Virus record (IMG/VR): IMGVR_UViG_2606217118_000001
Direction: 5' to 3' (one strand)
Origin: a virus
Taxonomy: Duplodnaviria; Heunggongvirae; Uroviricota; Caudoviricetes
Length of the DNA: 44,417 bases
Position numbers and translations under genes: made by a program. How positions within the stretch are numbered: position 1 is the first letter of the stretch; each line of letters opens with the position of its first letter. Shown here piece after piece: positions 1 through 27,323 of this stretch. The notes below the pieces were generated by a model, which was given only the letters and a program-made list of their open reading frames with translations, was not told the origin of the DNA and searched no databases.

Positions 1-276
1 TTACCGACTGCGGCCTGAGTTTTTTAAGTGACGTAAAATCGTGTTGAGGCCAACGCCCATAATGCGGGCAGTTGCCCGGCATCCAACGCCATTCATGGCC
101 ATATCAATGATTTTCTGGTGCGTACCGGGTTGAGAAGCGGTGTAAGTGAACTGCAGTTGCCATGTTTTACGGCAGTGAGAGCAGAGATAGCGCTGATGTC
201 CGGCGGTGCTTTTGCCGTTACGCACCACCCCGTCAGTAGCTGAACAGGAGGGACAGCTGATAGAAACAGAAGCCAC
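1..276 (-). CDS. insA: IS1 InsA transposition regulator
   Basis: 91 aa [40 protein letters not shown]... recognised as IS1 InsA. Confidence 0.9.
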
Positions 277-331
277 TGGAGCACCTCAAAAACACCATCA
301 TACACTAAATCAGTAAGTTGGCAGCATCACC
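1..331 (-). mobile_element. IS1 insertion sequence, partial (left terminal inverted repeat plus insA; element continues beyond window start)
   Basis: Reverse complement of 300-331 reads GGTGATGCTGCCAACTTACTGAT, the IS1 terminal inverted repeat; insA starts 55 nt inside the end as in IS1. Confidence 0.9.
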
Positions 332-965
332 AGCCTTCTTGAGGCTACCACCTGTTTTCAGGTGTCATTCAGACGTGATTTGCCCCAGATTGGGAAAGCA
401 CGCTTTTTTCTCAGCTATCGTCCTCTTATTTTGCCGTTACATTTCTTTTTGCACTCTAATGATTAATTTACAATAATAATATCGGTAATTATTGAGTAAT
501 AATAAATTGATTATTGCAAATGTAATTTAATTCCATCTTCGCGTTATATTCCAATCTTTAATCTCCGCATGGAACAAGTTGCATGCGTGACTATATTAAG
601 ACAACTTATAACCACCAAAACATTTGCTTTGCAAGCAAAAACAGTGACCATTGACTCTAAGAAAATTCCGATCTATTGTTAGGGTCATCAAAGTTACTTA
701 ACAGTATTCCGAAATGAAAATACAAAGCAAGCTAATTGTCTTATTAAACATTATTATTGCATTTATATTATTTGAGCTTTTAGCTCAAAAATTTGGTTTG
801 AGTACATTATTTTAAAGCAAGATAAACAATATCGGGCACTCTAGTTTTTATAATTAACAATTAAACGTCCATGAAATGTTATTTACTTTTCTTCGCTATT
901 GTCATATCTTAATATAGTGGCTTACGCCACTCTACTTTCATCACATTTTGTACGTTTATGTACTC

Positions 966-996
966 GCCATGAAGCTCTTTCATGGCGATTTTTTAT
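966..996 (+). terminator. Rho-independent terminator-like hairpin in AT-rich orphan region
   Basis: cgccatgaagctctttcatggcg stem-loop followed by TTTTTTATT. Confidence 0.4.
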
Positions 997-1080
997 TCTT
1001 AATCCAAGAACATACTCCCTACCTATAGCAAAATCACTTTTTTAACAAAAGAATAACGTATTTAGGTAATCATTACGAAT

Positions 1081-1662
1081 TTACCCTATAGGTGCTACTG
1101 GCCATTCAATATCCGGTGCAGTTGTTGTATTAACACGGTTCAGCAACACCCGATACTTCTTCCAGGCTTCCAGCAACGAGATTTCTTCCTCCGTTGCGAT
1201 TTCCAGATCTACAGCATCCTGAAGTGGCGCAATATGCTCACTGGCTACCTGCATCAGGCTGTTTTTTGTTTCTTCTGCCTCCCGGATCCGGAACAGTTTT
1301 TCTGCTTCCGTATCCTTCACCCAGGCTGTGCCGTTCCACTTCTGAAACTCCCCTTCCGGCGATAACCAGGTAACATTTTCCGCTAACGGACCGAGTTCAG
1401 AAATAAATAACGCGTCGCCGGAAGCCACGTCATAGACCGTTTTACCCCGATGGTCTTCAACGAGATGCCACGATGCCTCATCACTGTTGAAAACAGCCAC
1501 AAAGCCAGCCGGAATATCTGGCGGTGCAATATCGGTACTGTTTGCTGGCAGACCTGTATGAGGCGGAATATATGCGTCACCTTCACCAATAAATTCATTA
1601 GTTCCGGCCAGCAGATTATAAATTGTTATGGTCCGTGGTTGTTCACTCATTCTGAATGCCAT
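1081..1662 (-). CDS. tfa: Tail fiber assembly protein (lambda Tfa-like)
   Basis: 193 aa, [24 protein letters not shown]...; start overlaps stf stop. Confidence 0.9.
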
Positions 1663-4600
1663 TATGCAAGCCTCACAATATAGTTAAATGCGATGTTTTT
1701 GACGGTGTTTTCCGCGTTACCAGCAGCGTTAACGGTGATGGTGTGTCCATGTGAGCCAATCGCAACCGAGTGCGTATGAGCACCAATACCGACAGTATGT
1801 GCGTGTGCACCTGCGCTTGCAGCAGTGCCGGACAGTGAGTGGGTATGAGCACCATCTGATGATGTCTTCCCTGCATTACGAGTCTGGCCACTACCGCTTG
1901 TTGTGCTCATAATCCCCGCGCTTGGATTTGAAATCGCGGTATAACCATTAGGGAAAATGCTCGTGTTCGTGCCACCAAATGCACCGGAACTCTTGTGTTG
2001 GTGCGCACCGGCACTATTTGCGGTCCCGCTAATACTATGGGTATGCGCCCCGGTGTTATTCGTGGATTTGGTTCCGTAATCAAACGACGATGTGGTTTTC
2101 GTCCCCAAATCCGTACTGGATGCGCTGGCGCTGTGGGTATGCGATTTAATGCCGTCCTGTTCCTGAGACAATACGGCCCGACCACTGGCAGGTTTGCCCT
2201 TAATCGTCCAGCCACGCATATCAGGGATCACGCCTGACGGATAAGCCGCTGCAAGTTTCGGGTAGGCAGATTTGTCAAAAGCCTGCCCCTGCATCAGGGC
2301 ATAGCCAGACGGAACGGTATCTGATGGCCACGGGATTGGTGCGCCGACTGGGTAGCTTTCTGGTGGAAGATTTTTCGAGGTATAAACTTCTGCCCAGTCT
2401 TCCTCAAAACCATAGCCATCTCTTGAGGAACGGTAGAACAGACCTCCATTTCTGTAATGCGCCTTCATCTGCAGGGTCCGGCAACTTCCGACTCCGGTAT
2501 AGAAGTTAACCAGAATATAGCTGTCGCCAGAGCGGGTGACATTGTAAGCGCCTGATTCGGCATTCCAGGGAACGCCACCATCCGCATCGGCATATGTATC
2601 CGTTGCCCTTCTGGCAAAAGCAGCCACATGCGCGGCGGTTAAAGTAATATCTTTGGAACCATCAAACTCAACACCAGAAACCAGTCTTGGCGTTTGCAGC
2701 TTTGTTGCTGTTAATGCATTACCGTTCAGACTTGCGGACAGTTTGGTTCCAATAATCAGTTCGCCGGTTGCGTTATCAATAGCAAACGGTCTTAATGTAT
2801 TCCAGCCACCATAAACATCACCTTGATTGGTAAGCAGCAGGTAAGTTTTAGCGCCATCATTACGCCATAATGCACCATACTCCCCACCTATCATTCGAAT
2901 CTGATTACCACCACGCGCTACAATTTCGTCTGTGGCAAAAAGTTTTTTGCACGACAAGTTATCGTTAACGATTAACGAATGAGACTCATAAAAACCACGC
3001 CCACTCTTAAAATCAAGGATAACGTCCGCCGCGATACATTCAGTCGCCGGATTTGTTGCCCCAAACTTATAGGTCGTATCATTAACAACGAGATCAGCAC
3101 CAGGTGCGGATATTGACAGGCCATCTTCGATAAACGCAAAAACAGGGAAAGCAGCGCCATCAACATAGAACACAGAGCGCAAATCATCGCCCTTATTACT
3201 CATCATTATTGAGTGGATGGCTCGTTCATTGTTTTGATATTGCCAGAACATTCCATAAGCATAACGCCCCCTGTCAGTCCAGCCACCAGGCATAACAAAT
3301 CCGTTAAACTCGCAGTTATTCATCGGATCGCCTGCGGTTCGCGTTGCCGTGGTGATAATGACCCTTGATGCCAGTTCGCTTACTGAGCCAGCAGAACGCA
3401 TAACAACAACAGGGTAATATTTTCCAGATGTTGCACCTGCAGGAGCGTTAACCCGCACATAACGCATACCACGCTTATCAGCAAAGTCTGTTTTACTGAC
3501 CGCGTTAATGTTGTTCAGGAAGCGTCCCTTATCGGGTATATCAGCGCCGTTCTGGTCTTTCTGCAGACGTTTCTCTGCATTGTCATAGGCTGATTTTACT
3601 GCCTTTGGCGTTGCCGCCAGCGTTTCAGACGTACTGTTGGTCGCACTGCTGAGCTGTACTACCCCCTTTTTCGTCGTGCTCGCATCCTCAAGCGCCACGG
3701 CGGATGCAATATCCTCTGCCCGTTTTGCCGCTGTCTCGGCGCGCGTTGCCGCGGATTCCGCCGTACTTTTGCTCTGTGCTGCCGCTGCCGCACTGCCAGC
3801 TGCCTCTGTCGCCTTCGTGGATGCTGTCGTGGCGCTGCCCTTCGCTGCTGACGCCTGTCTGGTCGCCTCATCTTTTGAAGCAGACGCCGATGATGCCGAT
3901 GACGCCGCCGAACTGGCTGACGATGCGGCAGCCGTTTTTGAGGATTCTGCGCTGGTTTCCGACGCTTTCGCGTTCGTTTCGGATGTCTTCGCTGCGGAAG
4001 CAGACCTCGCTGCTGCGCTGGCCTGTTCAGTGGCTTCGCCAGCCTTCGTTGTGGCTGTTGAAGCAGACGATGCGGCACTTTCTGCCGACTTTCCGGCAGC
4101 GGTGGCACTGGCTGAGGCCTGCCCGGCACTGGCTGAGGCCTGCCCGGCACTTGTTGACGCGGCGCTGGCAGACGACGCAGCCGCTGTTTTTGAGCCTGCC
4201 GCAGCTGAGGCACTCTGTCCCGCTGCCGTTTCAGAAGACTTAGCGTTCGTCTCGGACGTTTTGGCCGCCTTCGCAGAATTTGCTGTCGCCGTTGCCGAGG
4301 AAGCTGCGCTGCTGGCGCTCGAGGCTGCGCTCGTTTCTGATGATTTTGCCGCCTCTTTTGAAGCTGACGCATCCCGGGCTGAGGTGGCAGCTTCTGACGC
4401 TTTCGTGGTCGCGGTGGATGCAGAAGTGGCTGCTGATTGTTGTGACGCTGCCGCATTCGTTTCTGACGTTTTCGCCGCAGCGGCACTGGTGGCCGCCGCG
4501 CTTTTTGAGGACTCTGCAGCGGCAGCACTTTTTTCCGCTTCAGTGGCCTTTGTTGATGCCGTTCCTGCGCTGGAAGACGCTGACTGAGCCGACGACGCGG

Positions 4601-5084
4601 CCTGTCCGGCTGACGTGCTGGCTGCGCGTGCTGAGCCTGCAGCATCAGTCGCATGGGTTGCCGCCTCACGGGCTGATGTGCCGGCATCGCTGGCTGACTT
4701 CTTCGCGGCTGCCGTGTTCTGTGCCACCGCGGACGCGTTACGCGCCACCTCTTCCACCATCAGTTCAAAACGGCGCAGAGCCTCAGGACGGGCATCATCC
4801 TCTGTCATGGCACCGAGAAAATCATTCAGCGTACCGGGTTGAGAATCTTCATACACGGTAATGGTCCCGGCATGTGATGGCGGGAATCCCTCCACCAACA
4901 GACTGACGCTGTACTGACCATACTCGACGTCCATTGTGTAACGCCCGGCTTCATCCGGGTTTTCTGAGGCCACTGTGTTCACCACCACCGTGGTGCTGTT
5001 GCGCCTGGCCTTTAGCTGAATGGTGCAGTTTTGTATCGGCTTACCTGCGCCATCTTTCAGTACACCTGAAATCCGTACTGCCAT
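1662..5084 (-). CDS. stf: Side tail fiber protein (Stf-like), 1140 aa with long Ala/Ser-rich low-complexity region and C-terminal His-rich GAHTHS motifs
   Basis: N-terminus [31 protein letters not shown]... resembles lambda Stf; SD GGGGGG upstream; internal tandem repeats. Confidence 0.85.
4108..4149. repeat. Perfect 21-bp tandem duplication (ctggctgaggcctgcccggca x2) inside stf low-complexity region
   Basis: Two identical adjacent 21-mers at 4108-4128 and 4129-4149; encodes repeated SAGQASA heptad. Confidence 0.9.
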
Positions 5085-5094
5085 ATTCCCCCCA

Positions 5095-5123
5095 CAAAAA
5101 AGCCCGCCTGAACCGGCGGGCTG
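5095..5123 (-). terminator. Rho-independent terminator downstream of lom
   Basis: Minus strand agcccgcc-ggttca-ggcgggct hairpin followed by TTTTTT. Confidence 0.7.
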
Positions 5124-5148
5124 TCATAACACTGTGTTACCTGGCTAA

Positions 5149-5748
5149 TCAGAATTTATAACCGACACCAACGATGAAACTGTTGGTACGCCAGTCACCG
5201 CTGCCGGAGCCTTCATAAGCAATATCAATGGCCACGGATTCGGTCGGGTTAAACTGCACGCCAGCTCCCCACGCCAGAGACGTGTTGCTGTGGCGACCGT
5301 CATCACTTCCGGTCAGCACGTCGTGCGTTTTCCCCTTGTTGTCAGTTACGCGGAGATAATCCCCGGAGAAAGTCGACACACGGCTGTAAGCCACACCCGC
5401 CATCGCATACGCGCTGAACCATTCATTCACGCGCACAGACGGCCCCGCCATCACGCTGAACCAGCGGTTACGAACGGAATCTTCATGCCAGCGGGTATCG
5501 CTGTAACGGGTAAGCTGGCGATTCTTGTCTCCTGCATAGCTGAATGACGTCACCATCCCCAGTGTGTCCGTAAACTCATAACGGTATTTCACGTTAATCC
5601 CGTTCAGATCATCGCTGCCGGGAACGTTCGTCGAGGCATGAAGATACCCCGCGCTCAGCGTGGACTGATGTTCAGATGCCCATGCAGGCGCACCGGATAC
5701 GGCCAGACAAATGGCTGCGGACAAAATTGCTGCACAAACTTTACGCAT
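5149..5748 (-). CDS. lom: Outer membrane protein Lom (Ail/Lom/PagC family)
   Basis: 199 aa with signal peptide [24 protein letters not shown] and beta-barrel-like C-terminus ending GVGYKF. Confidence 0.9.
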
Positions 5749-5818
5749 AATTACCTCTCGCTTTTCTGCAATAAAAAAGGCGTCATTCCTGACGCCCTTT
5801 ATTGGGGTTATAACAATT

Positions 5819-8800
5819 TCAACGAATACTGATGCCGGAAGCGGCTTTTTTGGTCACAATCACCGTACAGTCGGTGATATTACCTGCCCACTGATTGCCT
5901 TTATGGAAAACCTTAAACTCCAGAGTGACGTTTCCCCTGCCACTCGGCATATCAATAACCGCACTGTAGCTACCGGGAATGGCCCCTTTAGTTTCTCTGG
6001 ATGCGATTAATACACCGTTTTTGCGAACTTCAAAACCATAACCCGTGTATCTTGTACTTCCCGGGTTATTACCACTTCCCGGATCGCTATACGCTATTCC
6101 GTTAAAGATAATGGGCGGAATAATGATTTGACGGTCAAAGTTATGATCATCGCTGATGGTGACTGTAACCGTCCCGTTTGGTGTTTCCGTATTACCCCAC
6201 GTACCAGCCTGTTTCGGGAATGATTTGGATACAGCTTTAACGAAGTCACCTCTGACCTGAGTCGCCTCCAGCATGCCCTTAATCGTACAGTTTTCATTTA
6301 CCGTGACATTGTTGAGCGTCCCGGCGTTCGCATTCACACTGCCACTGATATCCGCATTTTTAGCGGTCAGCTTTCCGTCCGGTGTCAGGGAAAATGCCGG
6401 TGGATTTCCACCGCTGGTAATGGTGGGGGCCGTCAGGCGTTTCAGGAACACGTCGTTCATGAATATCTGATCGCCCTGACCAACAAACATCGGTTTTGTG
6501 TTGCCATTCGCAGGATTAACCATCGCAATCCTGTCCGCCGCCAGCAGCACCTGACTCTGCATGCCGTCAGGGGTGTTCTCAATACCGGCACCAATACCCG
6601 CGATATAAAGGCGTCCGTCCTGCATCTGCTGCAGCTTCACAGCCCACATGCTGTTCAGGTTATTATTTGTATCAACCTGAACTTTCTGTATCTGCTGGAT
6701 TGCCGCACTCTGGTCTTCCAGTTTTTTATTGACGGTCTGCGTGATTTCATTGCTGACATTCGTAATGGACGTCCTGATTTCAGCCAGGTCCGGCGCAAGC
6801 TGACCGTTATCAATCTGCGTCCACAGCTCCTGGGCCAGATGTGTTTTCCCGATTTCTCCTTTGAAAAAATCCAGGTAACCTTCCGCATCATCGCTCGCCC
6901 GACCGACAGCCTCCACGAATGCCGATTTGCCAACAGTGTTCACACTGCGAACGTAAAAATAATAATCATGACCCGGCTTGATATTGATACTGGCAGCTAT
7001 CCAGTACAGCGCCGTGCCAAGATAGCGGGCTGTAGTTTCAACCTGCCTGATATCGGTAATCCGCTTTTCCGAGAACCAGAACTCAAACTGTACCGTCGGG
7101 TCATAAACGGCAAGATGCGGCGTTGCGGTTATCTGAAAATAGCCCGGCGTCAGTTCAATCCGCGACGGCGTCGCCGGTGCGGCAATCCGGAACAATACCG
7201 ACGCCGGATCGCCCTGCTGTCCCCACGCATTTACCGCCCGGACTGTCAGCCTGTAGTTTCCCAGCGCCAGCTGCCTGAAGCGGTATGTGGTTTCCGTCGT
7301 CCGGGCTGTGCTGACCAGCCGCTCACTGCCATCGTCCGCTGTCACGGTCAGGCGAAGCATAAAGCTCACCCCCTTCACCACCTTCGGTGTGTCCCAGCGC
7401 GCCAGCACCTGATATTCCCCGCTGTCTGCGGAGACTTCGGCTGTCAGGTGCTGTACCGCTGGCGGCGTGACACCATTCACCGTGCCGCTCAAATCGCCGT
7501 CAAAGTGCGCCCCGTTATCCACGATGGCCTCTTTTTCCGGTACATGCTGCACGGCAGTGATGGCATACGTGCCGTCATCGTTCTCACGGATACTCACACA
7601 GCGGAACAGGCGCTGGCGCAACGTCGGCAACTTCAGCCCCCATACGCTGTATCCGGCAACGCCGTCAGGAACACGGCTCACTTTTACCTTCACGCCGTCG
7701 GTGACGGACTGGACCTCCACGCTGACCGGATTGCCACTTCCGTCAACCAGGCTTATCAGCGTGGTGCCGGAAGATGGCAGCGTGATTTCACGGTCGAGCG
7801 TCAGCGTCCGGGTCTGGCTGTTCACCGCCAGCACGCGCCCGCCGGTGCTGATACCGGCATAGTCATCATCGCAGATTTCAATGACATCGCCCGGTACATG
7901 GCGAAGCCCTTCAGCACCCACGCTGAAGTCCACGGTCTGCGTTTCCAGCAGCTCCGTTTTAATCAGCCACAGCCCGGCTCGGTGTGCCTGCCCCCGGCTG
8001 GTACAGCCAAAGGCATCCATCTTCGTGACGTTACGACCATAACGGGCAATGGCCTGCGTGTCCTCCACAAGCTCTGTCGCCGTCTCCCAGCCGTTATCCG
8101 GGTCAATCCAGTTCACCTCAACGGCATTATGGCGGTCCTTGAGGGCGCTGAAGCTGTAGCGGAACGGCGCGCCATCATCCGGCATCACCACATTACTGCG
8201 GTTATAGGTCCACACCTTATCCGACGGTCGGTCCTGCACGAACGTCAGCGTCTGCCCGTTCCATACCGGCATACAGCGCATCGCCGAGCAGAAATCACTG
8301 AGCACATCCCACGCCTTGCGCTGTGTGGTCAGGTACGCATTACAGGTGATGCGCGGCTCCGTGCCGCCAAAGCCGTCCGGCACTGACTGGTCGCAGTACT
8401 GGCCGATGACATACAGCGCCCATTTGTCCACATCCGCCGCACCAAGACGTTTCCCCATGCCGTAGCGTGGGTGGGTCAGCATATCCCACAGACACCAGGC
8501 CATGTTATTGCTGTATGCTGGCTTAAACGTTCCGTCCCAGATACCGCTGTATTGCCGCGTCTGCGGGTTATAATTCGACGGCACCTGCAGAATACGCCCG
8601 CGCAGATGATAATTACGGCTCACCTGCTGGCTGCCGAACTGCTCCGAGTCCACCTGCACACCGACCAGTGCCGTGTTCGGGTAGCACTGTTTCACATCGA
8701 TGATTTCGGTGTATGACGACCAGAGCGTTTTGTTCTGCAGCTGGTCTGTGGTGCTGTCCGGCGTCATCCTGCGCATCCGTATACTGAACGGGCGCGGCGG

Positions 8801-9316
8801 CAGGTTATCCACCACCACCGAGGCCAGATACTGCGAGGTGGTTTTGCCCTTAATGGTGATGTCTTTTTCCGTCACCCAGCCACCGTTACGCTGTATCTGA
8901 ACCAGCAGGCGGACTTCCGACGGATTCCTGTCACCCTTTGAGGTGGTTTCCACCAGTGCCTGTACACCGAAGGTAAAGCGCAGACGGTCGATGTTTGCCG
9001 ACGTGATGGTCCGGGTGATCGGCGTGTCATATTTCACTTCCGTACCCAGCACCGTCTCGGAGCCGGAGGATTCAAATCCCTCCGGCGGTGACTGCTCCTG
9101 CTCACCGGCCCGGAACACCACCGTGACGCCGGATATATTGGTATTCCCCTCACTGTCCAGCACCGGCGTACTGTTCAGCAGCACGCTTTTTAATCCATCC
9201 ACCGGACCTTCAACCGGCCCTTCGCTGATGGCATCGATCACACTCAGCAGCTGCGTGGACTTCAGGTTGTCCTTCGCTTCGCGCGGGGTATGCCCCTTAC
9301 TGCTGCCTTTACCCAT
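5819..9316 (-). CDS. J: Tail tip host-specificity protein J (central fiber); C-terminal receptor-binding region differs from lambda J
   Basis: 1165 aa, N-terminus [34 protein letters not shown]... matches lambda J; C-terminal ~150 aa do not match recalled lambda sequence. Confidence 0.95.
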
Positions 9317-17628: not shown

Positions 17629-18654
17629 TTACGCCAGTTGTACGGACACGAACTCATCAGGGTCAGCCAGCAGCATCAGCGGTGCTGACTGAATCATGGT
17701 GAACTCACGCGCCGGATCGCCGGTGGTCACCCAGTTTTTCGGGTAACGGGCAGAGGCGTTAATGCCTTCGCGCTGTGCGTCCGCATCCTGAATGCAGCCA
17801 TAGGTGCGCAGACCGCGTGCATGAGTGTTACCCAGCACCATCGTGTTGTCCGGCAGGAAGTTCTTTTTGACGCCGTTTTCCACGTACTGTCCGGAATACA
17901 CGACGATGGCCACATCGCCATACATCCCCTTATAGGACACCGCTTTACCCAGGTCTTTCACCGCTGTCTCCAGCTCGGAATGAGAGCCGCGACGGGTATC
18001 CAGCTTCTCCTTGACGGCGTTGAAGGAACGGAACAGCGCCCAGCCTTTCGGATCAAACACGATGATATTCACCACGCCGCTGGCGTTCAGCGCGTAGGCT
18101 TCGATATCGTCGGTCGGGTCATACGTGGACTTGTCACGCTTGCTCCACTCCGTGCCGCCGGACTGCGTGATGTTGTTCGCCGCACTGCGGCCCATATCCA
18201 CCTCAACCGGATCGAAGGCTTCACCGGTCATGGTGTATTTGCCCTTGAGCACGGCAGAAACTGCCTGCATCTCTTCGACCTGAGCAATGGCCAGCTCTTC
18301 GTCACGCATGTTCTGCAGGATGATGCGACGGCGGCGGTAAGCCGGGTCCGCCAGATTCTGCGGATCTTCATCCGGCAGGCGACGCAGGGTCATCTGCGGA
18401 TTCACTTCATGCTTGGGTTTGACATATCCCGGCGTAAATTCAGAGGTGGAGCCGCCACGGGAACGGATAACCTCACCGGAAACAATCGGCGAAACGTACA
18501 GCGCCATGTTTACCAGTCCCGGAATTTGTGAGAGATAGACTTTCTCCGTAGTGAAGGGATAGCTCTCACGGAAAAAGAGACGCAGAAACAGCGGATCAAA
18601 CTTAAATTTCTGCTCATTTGCCGCCAGCAGCTGGGCGGTTGTGTACATCGACAT
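17629..18654 (-). CDS. E: Major capsid protein E
   Basis: Start at MSMYTTAQLLAANEQKFKFDPLFLRLFFRESYPF; 341 aa. Confidence 0.95.
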   Translation of the reverse strand: MSMYTTAQLLAANEQKFKFDPLFLRLFFRESYPFTTEKVYLSQIPGLVNMALYVSPIVSGEVIRSRGGSTSEFTPGYVKPKHEVNPQMTLRRLPDEDPQNLADPAYRRRRIILQNMRDEELAIAQVEEMQAVSAVLKGKYTMTGEAFDPVEVDMGRSAANNITQSGGTEWSKRDKSTYDPTDDIEAYALNASGVVNIIVFDPKGWALFRSFNAVKEKLDTRRGSHSELETAVKDLGKAVSYKGMYGDVAIVVYSGQYVENGVKKNFLPDNTMVLGNTHARGLRTYGCIQDADAQREGINASARYPKNWVTTGDPAREFTMIQSAPLMLLADPDEFVSVQLA

Positions 18655-24986: not shown

Positions 24987-25220
24987 ATGTCAACGAAGAA
25001 CAGAACCCGCAGAACAACAACCCGCAACATCCGCTTTCCTAACCAAATGATTGAACAAATTAACATCGCTCTTGAGCAAAAAGGGTCCGGGAATTTCTCA
25101 GCCTGGGTCATTGAAGCCTGCCGCCGGAGACTGTGCTCAGAAAAAAGAGTTTCTTCTGAAGCAAACAAAGAAAAGAGTGACATTACTGAATTGCTCAGAA
25201 AACAGGTCAGACCAGATTGA
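24987..25220 (+). CDS. Small conserved prophage protein (YlcI/DUF3950-like)
   Basis: 77 aa, MSTKNRTRRTTTRNIRFPNQMIEQINIALEQKGSGNFSAWVIEACRRRL...; opposite strand to late operon. Confidence 0.6.
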   Translation: MSTKNRTRRTTTRNIRFPNQMIEQINIALEQKGSGNFSAWVIEACRRRLCSEKRVSSEANKEKSDITELLRKQVRPD

Positions 25221-25277
25221 AGCAATTTAGATAATCGTGCAGACTACGCCCCCTCATATCACATGGAAGGTTTATCT

Positions 25278-25688
25278 ATGGATCAGGTAGTCATTTTTAA
25301 ACAAATATTTGATAAAGTTCGAAACGATTTAAACTATCAATGGTTTTATTCTGAGCTAAAACGTCACAATGTCTCACATTACATTTACTATTTAGCCACA
25401 GAGAATGTTCATATTGTATTAAAAAATGATAATACAGTGTTATTAAAGGGCCTAAAAAACATTGTGTCTGTCAAATTTTCAAAGGATAGGCATCTTATAG
25501 AAACGACCTCTAATAAGCTGAAATCCAGAGAGATCACATTTCAGGAATACAGAAGAAACCTTGCTAAAGCAGGAGTTTTTCGGTGGGTTACAAATATCCA
25601 CGAACAAAAAAGATATTACTATACCTTTGATAATTCATTACTCTTTACTGAAAACATACAGAGCACATCACAAATGTTTCCACACTAA
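25278..25688 (+). CDS. Conserved prophage protein of unknown function (YbcV-like)
   Basis: 136 aa from ATG at 25278 preceded by GGAAGG; [38 protein letters not shown]... Confidence 0.6.
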
Positions 25689-25988
25689 ACCATAACGTCC
25701 GGTTTCTTCCACCATCGCACCGGAAAAGCGACTATGAGGGTAACCCTGCGTCTGTCAGCACAGTAAAATCCGGTGTGCATCGTTTTTGATTATTCCCGCA
25801 CACTCACGCAGAAGGAATTCCCCGTCGGGCTACGGTCATGGTTAATGCGGGAATACGGCGACGATACAGCGCATGATGTGTCAGGCTTGAATACCTTTAT
25901 CCGTTAAAAGGGATATCAGTTAAGTTATCCCGTGCAGGGTATAAGCCATTATCAAGCCCCCCCGTAGATAGGCTTTGTAATGACATCT

Positions 25989-26513
25989 TCAATTAATCAG
26001 CAGTTCAGGCTGTGTCACCTGCAAGATGTATTCATGCTCGACAGCCAGGACACGCTTCTCTTTCTTCCGTTCGTTCATTAACCGACTGCCGATCGTACCT
26101 TTCAGCTTTGAGCGTGTTTCTTTGATGGCGTAGCGGTGCTGCATTTCTTCGCCAATTGCCATGCGGCGGCTCAGTTGCTCTGCCATCCAGTTGAATGCTG
26201 CGATATAGCTCTCCTTGATTGCCGCAGCAGCTTTCCCGGTGAACCCCATCACAACCATGATCCAGCCATCTTTCGTCAGGCTGTACATCGGGCGAACCTT
26301 GCCCTGCTCATCGATATAATCAGCCGACGCAAAATTGCGTTGGCTAAACTCACGCGAGCAATCAGCCTTAACCTGCTCGATTTTCCTGAGAACATCACCG
26401 TGTCGCTTGCCGAAGTACTTGGCAATTTTTCTGGATGTGGTAACGACCTCTCCGTTTTTGGCTTGCACCATTTCTCGGAAGTCGAAGGCTGGAATAACTG
26501 AATGATTATTCAT
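25989..26513 (-). CDS. rha: Phage regulatory protein, Rha family
   Basis: Start at MNNHSVIPAFDFREMVQAKNGEVVTTSRKIAKYFGKRHGDVLRKIEQ (Rha-type motif); RBS AAGG upstream; longer ORF extension rejected. Confidence 0.7.
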   Translation of the reverse strand: MNNHSVIPAFDFREMVQAKNGEVVTTSRKIAKYFGKRHGDVLRKIEQVKADCSREFSQRNFASADYIDEQGKVRPMYSLTKDGWIMVVMGFTGKAAAAIKESYIAAFNWMAEQLSRRMAIGEEMQHRYAIKETRSKLKGTIGSRLMNERKKEKRVLAVEHEYILQVTQPELLIN

Positions 26514-26855
26514 AGCGTCTTTACCTTTTAGAAAGTGAGCCTGTCTCACAGAAAAGCCGCCCGAGAGAGGTCGCCACCTATAACGGCATTTCTCAGGCTC
26601 GCTTACTGAAAGGCTCTCGTTAATATGCGCGTGAGATGCGCTGTGAAATTCAGATATAAAAAGCCCCGCGAATGCGAGGCTAAATCCTGGTATTTGTAAT
26701 GAACTGGCTCTTATCTCAACGCAGCCCCTTACTGCGCGCCAGATGCTCAATATCAAGCATCAGCAATGAGATGTTTAATCTGGATTTACTCCAGAAGTGA
26801 TCACCACCCTGTCTACAGAGCCAGATGTGAAGGATGATGAGTAAAATTATCGCTA

Positions 26856-27323
26856 TCATCGAAGGCATTGCGTCCTAATGTATTCCTGAAGCGTTCTCAG
26901 TGCTGTTTGGTCGCGGATAATTCCGTCCCGGATATCGAGAACGTTTCGTCCAGCAACTGGAGAGAGTTCGACGGTGGCATCATTGCCCATGCCGGAGGCG
27001 CTGGAGGTTTCGGCTGAGGATGGCACAGGGCATTTTCCTTTGACGAGCACCCTGCCACCATTATCAAGCTTCCGCAGAAGAGCATCATTTTCAGCTTTCG
27101 CATCAGCTAACTCCTTCGTGTATTTTGCATCGAGCGCAGCAACATCACGCTGACGCATCTGCATGTCAGTAATTGCCGCGTTCGCCAGCTTCAGTTCTCT
27201 GACATTTTTGTCGCGCTGGGCTTTGTAGGTAATGGCGTTATCACGGTAATGATTAACAGCCCATGACAGGCAGACGATGATGCAGATAACCAGAGCGGAG
27301 ATAATCGCGGTTACTCTGCTCAT
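26856..27323 (-). CDS. Rz: Inner-membrane spanin Rz (i-spanin)
   Basis: Start [38 protein letters not shown] with GGGGGA SD; ATGA overlap with R stop; C-terminal half diverges from lambda Rz. Confidence 0.9.
26897..27103 (-). CDS. Rz1: Outer-membrane lipoprotein spanin Rz1 (o-spanin), embedded in Rz in +1 frame
   Basis: 68 aa with lipobox LIMVAGCSS and Pro-rich [16 protein letters not shown]. Confidence 0.8.

Follow-up and report, generated by a model that had tools for sequence, protein, structure and literature searches.

The question raised by this locus is whether the long Ala/Ser-rich tract of its side tail fiber gene is an unstable repeat array that varies fiber length or a structural element of set length. 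The gene, stf (1662–5084, minus strand, in the 44,417-nucleotide tailed-phage sequence analyzed here, hereafter the window), encodes 1140 amino acids, the length given in an earlier note on this DNA, plus a stop codon; the open reading frame is intact and free of frameshifts. The ORF list, Pfam and the PHROG tail fiber families all support its assignment. Pfam recognizes four domains, phage_tail_N, Gp34_trimer, Collar and Phage_fiber, and the N-terminal prophage tail fiber domain PF08400 spans residues 1–134 (E = 2.9e-71). The gene also occupies the position of a lambdoid side tail fiber, in the minus-strand order J (5819–9316), lom (5149–5748), stf and tfa (1081–1662). The same order, with a full lambda-like tail and head module, is annotated in the near-identical locus of E. 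coli 14EC020, where the corresponding gene is named stfR. A terminator-like GC-rich hairpin followed by a T-run was found by consensus scan between lom and stf (5101–5122, minus strand; 8-bp stem with 7 GC pairs). An Rfam scan of positions 1–6000 gave no match within stf, its sole match being IS009 inside tfa. The ORF is the Stf/StfR-type side tail fiber of a lambda-like prophage, and an exact-protein look-up finds it already in NCBI as WP_032252835.1.

The first 94 residues (4803–5084, minus strand) form the N-terminal collar domain, covered by PF08400 and matching the tail fiber protein of PDB 9e7m/9mgh over residues 1–94 (E = 2.6e-50). In Ur-lambda, the N-terminal domain of Stf forms a dodecameric ring round the tail at the gpV/gpM junction (PMC12617516). 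By homology to Ur-lambda, three Stf chains would assemble into one fiber, with these 94 residues contributing a collar around the tail. The Ala/Ser tract that follows after a short linker leads into a conserved post-shaft module (residues 469–530; 3495–3680, minus strand), identified by a match to Mu tail fiber S (5yvq, 8ju3; query 447–528). The junction between the two is kept in nearly all relatives, and the module may correspond by position to the hinge region that PMC12617516 describes in lambda Stf. Distal to it lie a T4 gp34-type trimerization domain (residues 670–769; 2778–3077, minus strand; PF21446, E = 3.4e-27; PDB 4uxe/5nxf, query 713–784) and a domain like that of Mu S/S′ (residues 820–914; 2343–2627, minus strand), which matches residues 322–415 of PDB 8ju3 with a domain E value of 2.6e-20. 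The fiber would continue beyond the shaft as a hinge module, then the gp34-like and Mu-S-like domains, and finally the tip.

The tract itself comprises 52 uninterrupted heptads over 364 residues (residues 105–468; 3681–4772, minus strand), with the consensus x-A-x-[T/S]-S-A-[S/T]. The earlier note had put its length at about 350 residues in GC-rich DNA, close to what was measured: the tract is 62–64% GC, and GC runs at 0.61–0.64 over ∼3600–4800 against ∼0.50 elsewhere in the gene. Of residues 105–468, 70–80% are Ala, Ser or Thr, and large hydrophobic residues are few. All 52 heptads share a single register, and the tract is homologous to the proximal shaft of Ur-lambda Stf; position 2 is Ala in 47 of the 52, position 5 is Ser in 38 and position 6 is Ala in 36. 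The autocorrelation of Ala at lag 7 is 0.44, and Fourier analysis gives peaks at periods of 3.49 and 7.04 that none of 1000 shuffles reaches. The description of this tract as expanded, low-complexity repeats therefore divides. Expansion is borne out, since a global alignment to lambda orf-401 leaves a single gap of 112 residues, or 16 heptads, that lambda Stf lacks and that lie in register here (residues 304–415; 3840–4175, minus strand; the segment includes the private heptad discussed below). Low complexity does not describe a strictly periodic 52-heptad shaft.

Periodicity and homology together suggest a trimeric coiled coil. Residues 105–468 would form a thin trimeric α-helical shaft, with a core of small Ala and Ser residues and a length of roughly 54 nm (∼38–43 nm for lambda), that would keep the distal part of the fiber away from the tail. 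In lambda Stf, residues 102–393 have been modeled as a proximal coiled coil, within a domain model built from cryo-EM/ET and in part on AlphaFold3 (PMC12617516). An AF2 monomer prediction from the single sequence (residues 95–520) is ∼95% helix with a mean pLDDT of 70.7. In this model the chain doubles back as three helices with two breaks below pLDDT 50, and at a pTM of 0.27 the prediction is unusable for geometry; the fold-back is probably an artefact of modeling a monomer, and the Ur-lambda authors saw the same problem in their full-length prediction (PMC12617516). The extreme composition, the scarcity of large hydrophobics and the two low-confidence breaks could also be read as signs of a flexible, intrinsically disordered linker in place of a rigid helical shaft. 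We consider this highly improbable: disorder leaves unexplained a 7-residue register that runs unbroken through 52 repeats, one of its positions being Ala in 90% of them, and the fact that most large indels keep that register. It is also at odds with the helix predicted by AF2 for nearly all residues and with the visibility of the homologous lambda segment as a rod in cryo-ET (PMC12617516). The Ala/Ser tract of StfR-type fibers should accordingly be neither masked nor taken for disorder.

The coding DNA of the shaft is, as the earlier note had observed, open in several frames, with stop-free runs of 316 aa on the plus strand, 342 aa in another minus-strand frame, and 193 and 179 aa. Such runs, together with a 252-aa antisense ORF that a gene caller has placed in the public record, might indicate an overlapping or antisense gene hidden in the GC-rich tract. 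The openness is real, yet it does not rise above chance. When the gene was compared with 1000 synonymous shuffles, which retain the Stf protein, and 1000 shuffles of codon order, the synonymous null reproduced the stop-free lengths (361 observed versus 363; 303 versus 303), with frames +1 and −1 matching the null; the smallest p among five tests was 0.03, for one frame and uncorrected. The 252-aa antisense product has no Pfam match, and the alternative-frame translations, rich in Arg, Pro and Gln or in Ala, Asp and Val, mirror the Ala and Ser codons. Both the GC richness of the tract and its open alternative frames follow from the use of GCN, TCN and AGC codons for Ala and Ser. A hidden gene was therefore rejected as exceedingly improbable, and ORFs called in other frames of the shaft, including the one that sits in public gene calls, are compositional artefacts.

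Within the shaft lies a perfect 21-bp tandem duplication, noted earlier at 4108–4149 and contained in the span reported by TRF (4104–4151, minus strand; period 21, 2.3 copies, 100% match; unit AGTGCCGGGCAGGCCTCAGCC). It encodes SAGQASA twice, at residues 312–325, with residues 319–325 as the added heptad. A perfect tandem repeat of 42 nt is far beyond chance. Read directly in the sequence, a 6-bp direct repeat, AGTGCC, flanks the duplication, the two hexamers standing 21 bp apart. The stf gene of E. coli 14EC020 is identical over 3402 nt, the duplication being the sole difference. Among 79 stf genes scanned, a perfect tandem duplication of at least 12 nt in the shaft region occurs only in the present one; the others found in that set are three of 9 nt and one of 132 bp, the last in the post-shaft module of one relative (L006). 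These features are consistent with a single recent event in which a strand slipped between the two AGTGCC hexamers. The added heptad would lengthen the shaft by ∼1 nm with the helical register unbroken, and is most likely neutral.

The rarity of this allele bears on whether it is real. The 1140-aa protein is found on one contig only, JNQG01000030.1 of a draft assembly (GCA_000704225.1), among ∼15 billion catalogued proteins. The 42-nt duplication is absent from 37 complete E. coli genomes with identical flanks, and was not found in 2.9 million viral contigs or in 241 million metagenome contigs. This distribution is what would be seen if the duplication had arisen through an error in sequencing or assembling the draft contig, the real gene being the common 1133-aa allele. 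Against this, a 42-nt repeat is shorter than an ordinary read and so resolvable by assemblers, and artefacts more often remove repeat copies than add them. The duplication is moreover perfect, in frame, exactly one heptad long and bounded by microhomology of 6 bp, as is typical of genuine slippage during replication. An artefact is thus unlikely, though it keeps an appreciable share of our doubt. Taken as a genuine slippage product, the 52-heptad allele is a clean natural one-heptad variant.

One slippage-type duplication does not by itself make a variable tract. The sequence had suggested repeats prone to slippage or recombination that could vary fiber length; if so, the Ala/Ser tract would be a hypermutable contingency locus in which frequent slippage or unequal recombination alters fiber length within populations. 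The DNA of the shaft offers little for such a process. In 105-nt windows, the heptads are only 50–59% identical to one another. The repeat families reach 65–87% identity over 18–29 nt, and apart from the duplication there are no exact repeats longer than ∼18 nt. Near-identical units able to misalign are limited to one, present in 2.3 identical copies. Recent long internal duplications were also considered and rejected, as in-register self-comparison of the shaft gives at most 71% protein and 59% DNA identity.

Comparison across relatives points the same way. At least 80% of the rod is carried by 3586 genomes; of 46 complete E. coli genomes drawn evenly down the match ranking, 41 have a rod region that falls short of the present one by exactly 21 bp, the same difference as that of the 51-heptad relatives. 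One rod length is likewise common to 113 of the 120 nearest protein clusters. Because these best 120 matches are very close relatives and under-sample length diversity, loci from viral and genome collections were added. They include relatives with other shaft lengths, which fall into rare discrete classes of 35, 36, 37 and 66 heptads, each separated by a single indel; relative to the common allele, the rare offsets are −112, −105, −98, +105, −220 and +61 aa, four of the six being multiples of 7. Such variants, the present duplication and the reported recombination of lambda stf with the stf genes of the Rac and Qin prophages (PMC3945230) are what a contingency locus has in its favor. The divergence of the heptads at the DNA level, the constant difference in the complete genomes, the dominance of a single rod length among the protein clusters and the confinement of a perfect heptad duplication to one stf gene of those scanned all weigh against it. 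At the population level this explanation is largely refuted, and we regard it as very unlikely. Shaft length is not hypervariable; it is strongly conserved in the population. Of the length variation suggested earlier, what stands is one private duplication and a few rare classes, set against heptads of low identity and a single dominant length.

It is conceivable that shaft length is a selected, heptad-quantized parameter. The near fixation of 51 heptads across thousands of E. coli prophages and the leaning of rare large indels toward multiples of 7 aa would then express a geometric requirement, namely how far the side fiber must extend relative to the central J fiber and the surface layers of the host. 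We advance this idea speculatively and give it rather little weight. If length is selected, the 52-heptad allele, as a single-step microhomology-slippage variant, could be used to gauge the effect of one heptad on adsorption.

At the opposite end of the protein, residues 909–1140 (1665–2360, minus strand) form a receptor-binding tip of the T4 gp37 type, with collar, needle and head (PDB 2XGF, chain residues 27–242 against query 909–1140, E = 1e-82; Pfam Collar at 914–961). The earlier note had pointed to repeated GAHTHS and GAHAH motifs of the kind found in phage fiber tips. A regular-expression search places seven HxH motifs within residues 982–1114 (1743–2141, minus strand) and none elsewhere in the protein: SHTHS, GAHTHS, GAHQHK, GAHTHS, GAHAHT, GAHTHS and GSHGHT, with HxH at residues 982, 1014, 1028, 1080, 1094, 1103 and 1112, respectively. 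Each aligns to an HxH motif of the gp37 needle, as expected for a needle of this type. In T4, seven iron atoms are coordinated in the needle, the head binds OmpC and LPS, and tip residues 929–959 are functionally critical (PMC6957217). By analogy, the HxH motifs are predicted to coordinate iron on the axis of a trimeric needle. In a conservation profile of 27 distinct gp37-type tips, variation is limited to residues ∼1018–1076 and the seven HxH motifs are conserved. The variable head between the third and fourth HxH motifs (residues 1031–1077; 1854–1994, minus strand) is the predicted receptor-contact surface; it is 12–15 residues longer than that of T4 gp37 or of the 1120-aa stfR allele, with a 12-aa indel at residue 1032 relative to the latter (L082).

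The tip is paired with a specific type of chaperone. The tail fiber assembly protein Tfa (193 aa; 1081–1662, minus strand; PF02413, E = 2.9e-42; phrog_105) adjoins the fiber gene, its start overlapping the stf stop codon, and its sequence co-varies with tip type. A Tfa 86–99% identical to the present one lies downstream in 25 of 28 related loci whose fibers end in the gp37-type tip (…FNYIVRLA), which bears out the proposed pairing of tfa with tip type; fibers with other C termini have an unrelated Tfa downstream or none. Tfa is the cognate chaperone type for the gp37-type tip, and folding of the tip probably depends on it.

Considered together, and with high confidence, these data are consistent with a model of a StfR-type fiber with a heptad shaft, a gp37-type tip and one heptad derived by slippage. 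The last 232 residues would fold with the help of Tfa into a gp37-type needle stabilized by seven HxH metal sites, and the variable head would bind an outer-membrane receptor reversibly and speed adsorption. A receptor-binding role for the tip is suggested by homology; Ur-lambda Stf is present as trimers on the virion, accelerates adsorption and uses OmpC as receptor (PMC12617516). For phage engineering, the in-register heptad boundaries and the head between the third and fourth HxH motifs are natural sites for altering length or specificity. Beyond the correct annotation of stf, the importance of the locus is slight.

Several known fibers share parts of this architecture. Mu S/S′, with its chaperone U (5yvq, 8ju3), shares the KKG-VQL-SAT…AATPKAVK motif (query 447–528) and the distal domain at residues 820–914, but has neither the N-terminal collar domain nor the long Ala/Ser shaft, ends in a different tip and is encoded in part by an invertible segment, whereas no invertase gene adjoins the present stf. 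T4 gp37 (2XGF) aligns end to end with the last 232 residues, and its collar, seven HxH motifs and C-terminal strand are conserved. The head of the present tip has ∼15 more residues and a sequence unrelated to that of T4, and its receptor specificity may accordingly be different. The remainder of the protein is not gp37-like, and T4 uses gp38 where the present chaperone is a lambda-type Tfa.

The collar of the 774-aa Ur-lambda Stf (PDB 9e7m/9mgh; PMC12617516) is nearly identical over residues 1–94, lambda Stf is 85% identical to present residues 1–303, proximal coiled coil included, and the two fibers share the junction motif, the gp37-like tip and the Tfa chaperone. Lambda Stf lacks, however, ∼250 residues of middle domains, the gp34-like and Mu-S-like domains, and the lambda DNA match covers only 39% of the present stf.

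The StfR-type fibers, comprising the 1120-aa Rac-type stfR, that of phage ev099 and the 1133-aa protein of 14EC020 (WP_001695591.1), agree with the present fiber in gene position and in their five-part architecture. With the 1120-aa allele, taken as the protein called in this analysis, the present Stf shares 95.4% identity, its head being 12 aa longer, and with a 1133-aa allele 98.2%; its gene is 96.8% identical at the DNA level to that of ev099 and, outside the duplication, 100% identical to that of 14EC020. The tfa-stf-lom segment is present to 80% or more in ∼1300 complete E. coli genomes. Relative to the StfR-type alleles, the present fiber carries one extra heptad, SAGQASA, at residues 319–325; the gene is otherwise a common, catalogued and already known StfR-type fiber gene, ordinary but for this small private duplication.

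The stf gene is an intact ORF of 1140 amino acids on the minus strand (1662–5084, from the ORF listing), preceded by J (5819–9316) and lom (5149–5748; Ail/Lom by Pfam) and followed by tfa (1081–1662; 193 amino acids, Caudo_TAP by Pfam), whose start is overlapped by the stf stop. Pfam identifies a prophage tail fiber N-terminal domain (residues 1–134, E = 2.9e-71), a T4 gp34-type trimerization domain (670–769), and a phage tail collar domain (914–961), with a Phage_fiber repeat falling below threshold. PHROGs assigns Stf to tail fiber families along its whole length, and the initial reading as a side tail fiber stands. The protein is already in NCBI (WP_032252835.1, “prophage tail fiber N-terminal domain-containing protein”), and the window is the entire contig JNQG01000030.1 of draft assembly GCA_000704225.1. 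Among complete genomes the nearest is E. coli 14EC020, where the same gene is annotated stfR and belongs to a lambda-like prophage whose head, tail, and lysis module is complete. About 1300 complete E. coli genomes contain 80% or more of the tfa-stf-lom segment, and phages with stf at 96%–97% DNA identity include ev099 and mEp332. The window gene is thus unremarkable, encoding a side tail fiber of the StfR type that had been catalogued before. Many partial copies in NCBI are named “short-chain fatty acid transporter, partial” (P0001, P0005, P0010, and others), evidently a propagated misannotation.

Between lom and stf, 17 nt 5′ of the stf start, lies a strong terminator-like hairpin (5101–5122, minus strand; AGCCCGCC...GGCGGGCT then TTTTTGT), which late transcription would need to traverse, for instance via Q antitermination. 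Within tfa, the Rfam family IS009 (RF02111) gives a full-length match (1121–1319, minus strand; 229 bits, gathering score 117) wholly inside the coding sequence; this family may simply be built on conserved tfa sequence. The contig end carries an IS1 copy (InsA ORF, 1–276), and the ∼800 bp separating it from tfa (within 1–1080; 28%–36% GC) contain no ORF of at least 60 amino acids and are unannotated in the near-identical 14EC020 locus too. An inserted element of ∼11.3 kb (L116, 18420–29727) interrupts the major capsid gene of the 14EC020 prophage. It encodes a tyrosine integrase, a DNA primase, an Icd-like protein, an SSB, major capsid and decoration proteins of its own, and a DUF262 and HEPN pair, and looks like a satellite or defense island. 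The insertion point corresponds to ∼18410–18419 of the window, where the element is absent and the capsid gene is intact. A further ∼1.9 kb of the window (25149–27079) does not align to the 14EC020 prophage region, which is otherwise 97%–99.8% identical, and is therefore a local module replacement.

Residues 105–468 of Stf, 70%–80% of which are Ala, Ser, or Thr, form an unbroken series of 52 heptads that keep one register throughout. Position 2 is Ala in 47 of the 52, position 5 is Ser in 38, and position 6 is Ala in 36. The Ala autocorrelation at lag 7 is 0.44, Fourier power at periods of 3.49 and 7.04 is higher than in any of 1000 shuffles, and self-identity averages 0.37 at offsets of 7n versus 0.19 at other offsets. 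The earlier note had described low-complexity Ala/Ser repeats; the composition is real, but the tract is a regular heptad shaft rather than amorphous. A single-sequence AF2 model of residues 95–520 is nearly all helix (mean pLDDT 70.7) and folds back on itself, which we take to be a monomer artifact. We infer that three parallel chains make up the shaft as a thin coiled coil with Ala and Ser at its core; given a coiled-coil rise of ∼0.15 nm per residue, it would be roughly 54 nm long.

The DNA encoding the shaft is GC rich, as first noted (0.61–0.64 across about 3600–4800 versus ∼0.50 in the remainder of stf). At third codon positions, GC reaches only 0.54 in the shaft against 0.47 elsewhere, so the high GC content is due to the first and second bases of the codons for Ala (GCN), Ser, and Thr. 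The tract is indeed open in several frames, with stop-free ORFs of 316 amino acids on the plus strand and 342 amino acids in another minus-strand frame. An overlapping or antisense gene was considered and rejected because other-frame runs equal those obtained by shuffling synonymous codons with the Stf protein held constant (361 observed versus 363, and 303 versus 303); one alternative frame is marginal (p = 0.03, uncorrected for five tests). These alternative-frame ORFs are compositional by-products. Public gene calls include a 252-amino-acid antisense ORF in the shaft (L117, 2498–3256, minus strand, equivalent to the plus strand of the rod region in the window); it has no Pfam match and is an annotation artifact of Ala/Ser codon composition.

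Tandem Repeats Finder confirms the perfect 21-bp tandem duplication reported earlier, with 2.3 copies of period 21 at 100% identity (4104–4151). The coding strand reads ACA AGTGCC GGGCAGGCCTCAGCC AGTGCC GGGCAGGCCTCAGCC AGTGCC ACC, and 14EC020 has one unit between the same AGTGCC hexamers. These 21 bases, which add exactly one heptad (SAGQASA), are the sole difference between the two stf genes across all 3402 nt. Among complete genomes, all 37 whose flanks are 100% identical carry a single copy, as do a further 23 records among the matches listed. The duplicated 42-mer has no match in 2.9 million viral contigs or in 241 million metagenome contigs, the exact Stf protein occurs in one contig only among ∼15 billion catalogued proteins, and the window alone, among 79 stf genes scanned, has a perfect shaft-region tandem duplication of at least 12 nt. 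Sequencing reads are longer than the 42-nt repeat, and the event itself is clean and preserves the frame; we are therefore fairly confident that the duplication is real and not an artifact. Such an addition bears the signature of slipped-strand mispairing, here presumably between the AGTGCC direct repeats, which are 6 bp long and spaced by 21 bp; they arise from the recurrence of Ser-Ala, identically encoded, at fixed positions of the heptad. The duplication is the one private feature of this gene and most likely a neutral, recent slippage event. In another prophage (L006), the post-shaft module has a perfect 132-bp (44-amino-acid) tandem duplication (stf CDS nt 1131–1394), so module-level duplication occurs outside the heptad shaft.

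The proposal that such repeats are prone to slippage and could vary fiber length is only weakly borne out by the relatives. Among 46 complete E. coli genomes sampled at regular intervals along the ranking of rod matches, the rod is exactly 21 bp shorter than that of the window in 41, the net difference of 51-heptad relatives, 20 bp shorter in four, and 24 bp shorter in one. At least 80% of this rod is present in 3586 genomes, and one rod length is common to 113 of the nearest 120 protein clusters. Other lengths were found among 93 Stf sequences from viral and genome collections, each a single contiguous indel relative to the common 51-heptad allele and each at a different place (−112, −105 in lambda, −98, +105, −220, and +61 amino acids); partial draft proteins have a few indels of 1–3 amino acids. 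Of the six large indels, four have lengths divisible by seven residues (chance probability ∼0.005 by our own binomial estimate for random lengths). Heptads share only 50%–59% DNA identity over 105-nt windows, making them a poor substrate for slippage or unequal crossing-over. We conclude that length changes occur and tend to keep register but are rare; the shaft is not a hypervariable locus and is length conserved rather than slippage prone.

At the other end of the fiber, the His-rich tip motifs recognized earlier number seven HxH (residues 982–1114, none elsewhere in Stf). Residues 909–1140 align end to end with the crystallized receptor-binding tip of T4 gp37 (2XGF, E = 1e-82), including all seven motifs of the needle and the C-terminal strand. 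Each iron in gp37 is coordinated by the three copies of one histidine pair, with seven irons along the needle, and residues 929–959, just past the third HxH, form the tip that contacts OmpC and LPS and is critical for function (PMC6957217). Across 27 distinct tips of this type conservation exceeds 90% nearly throughout, except at ∼1018–1076, between HxH 3 and HxH 4; it follows that fold and metal sites are conserved, whereas this head is the variable part. The head is ∼15 residues longer than that of gp37 and 12 longer than in a 1120-amino-acid stfR allele, and is predicted from sequence to be the specificity-determining part of the tip. In 25 of 28 related loci whose fibers end in ...FNYIVRLA, the downstream Tfa is 86%–99% identical to that of the window over both halves; in the other three, a simple ORF finder found no Tfa or picked a different ORF. 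Fibers with other C termini (e.g., ...LTGSEH or ...TWYN...) have an unrelated Tfa or none, and the ...LTGSEH class appears to have no separate chaperone gene. Tfa type thus co-varies with tip type, making the window tfa the cognate type, and the suggested pairing holds.

Contigs in genome assemblies from unrelated taxa (Pseudomonas, Shewanella, Oceanobacillus, Desulfosporosinus, Kitasatospora, and others; L084–L097, L099, L101, L106, L110, and L113) match the N-terminal domain of the window Stf at 88%–100%. Several of these contigs state ∼1x coverage in their names, and most of those readable to the end encode the frameshifted 401-amino-acid orf-401 of lambda PaPa; they are almost certainly laboratory lambda DNA contamination.

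The middle of the protein matches Mu tail fiber S/S′ (5yvq, 8ju3) at residues 447–528 and 820–914 and T4 gp34 (4uxe, 5nxf) at 713–784, a mosaic of Mu-S-like and gp34-like domains typical of tail fibers; such mosaicism has long been described for lambda, P2, Mu, and T4, according to literature cited within PMC3945230. Residues 1–303 are 85% identical to lambda Stf, and residues 1–94 match a lambda chain in PDB 9e7m (E = 2.6e-50). Cryo-EM, cryo-ET, and AlphaFold3 divide Stf of Ur-lambda into a collar (1–91), a linker (92–101), a proximal trimeric coiled coil (102–393), and a hinge (394–422) (PMC12617516). The alignment with lambda Stf has a single gap of 112 amino acids, or 16 heptads (residues 304–415 of the window protein). 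The shaft would thus extend some 16–17 nm beyond that of lambda, and relative to lambda Stf, whose shaft is 16 heptads shorter, the tract is rightly called expanded.
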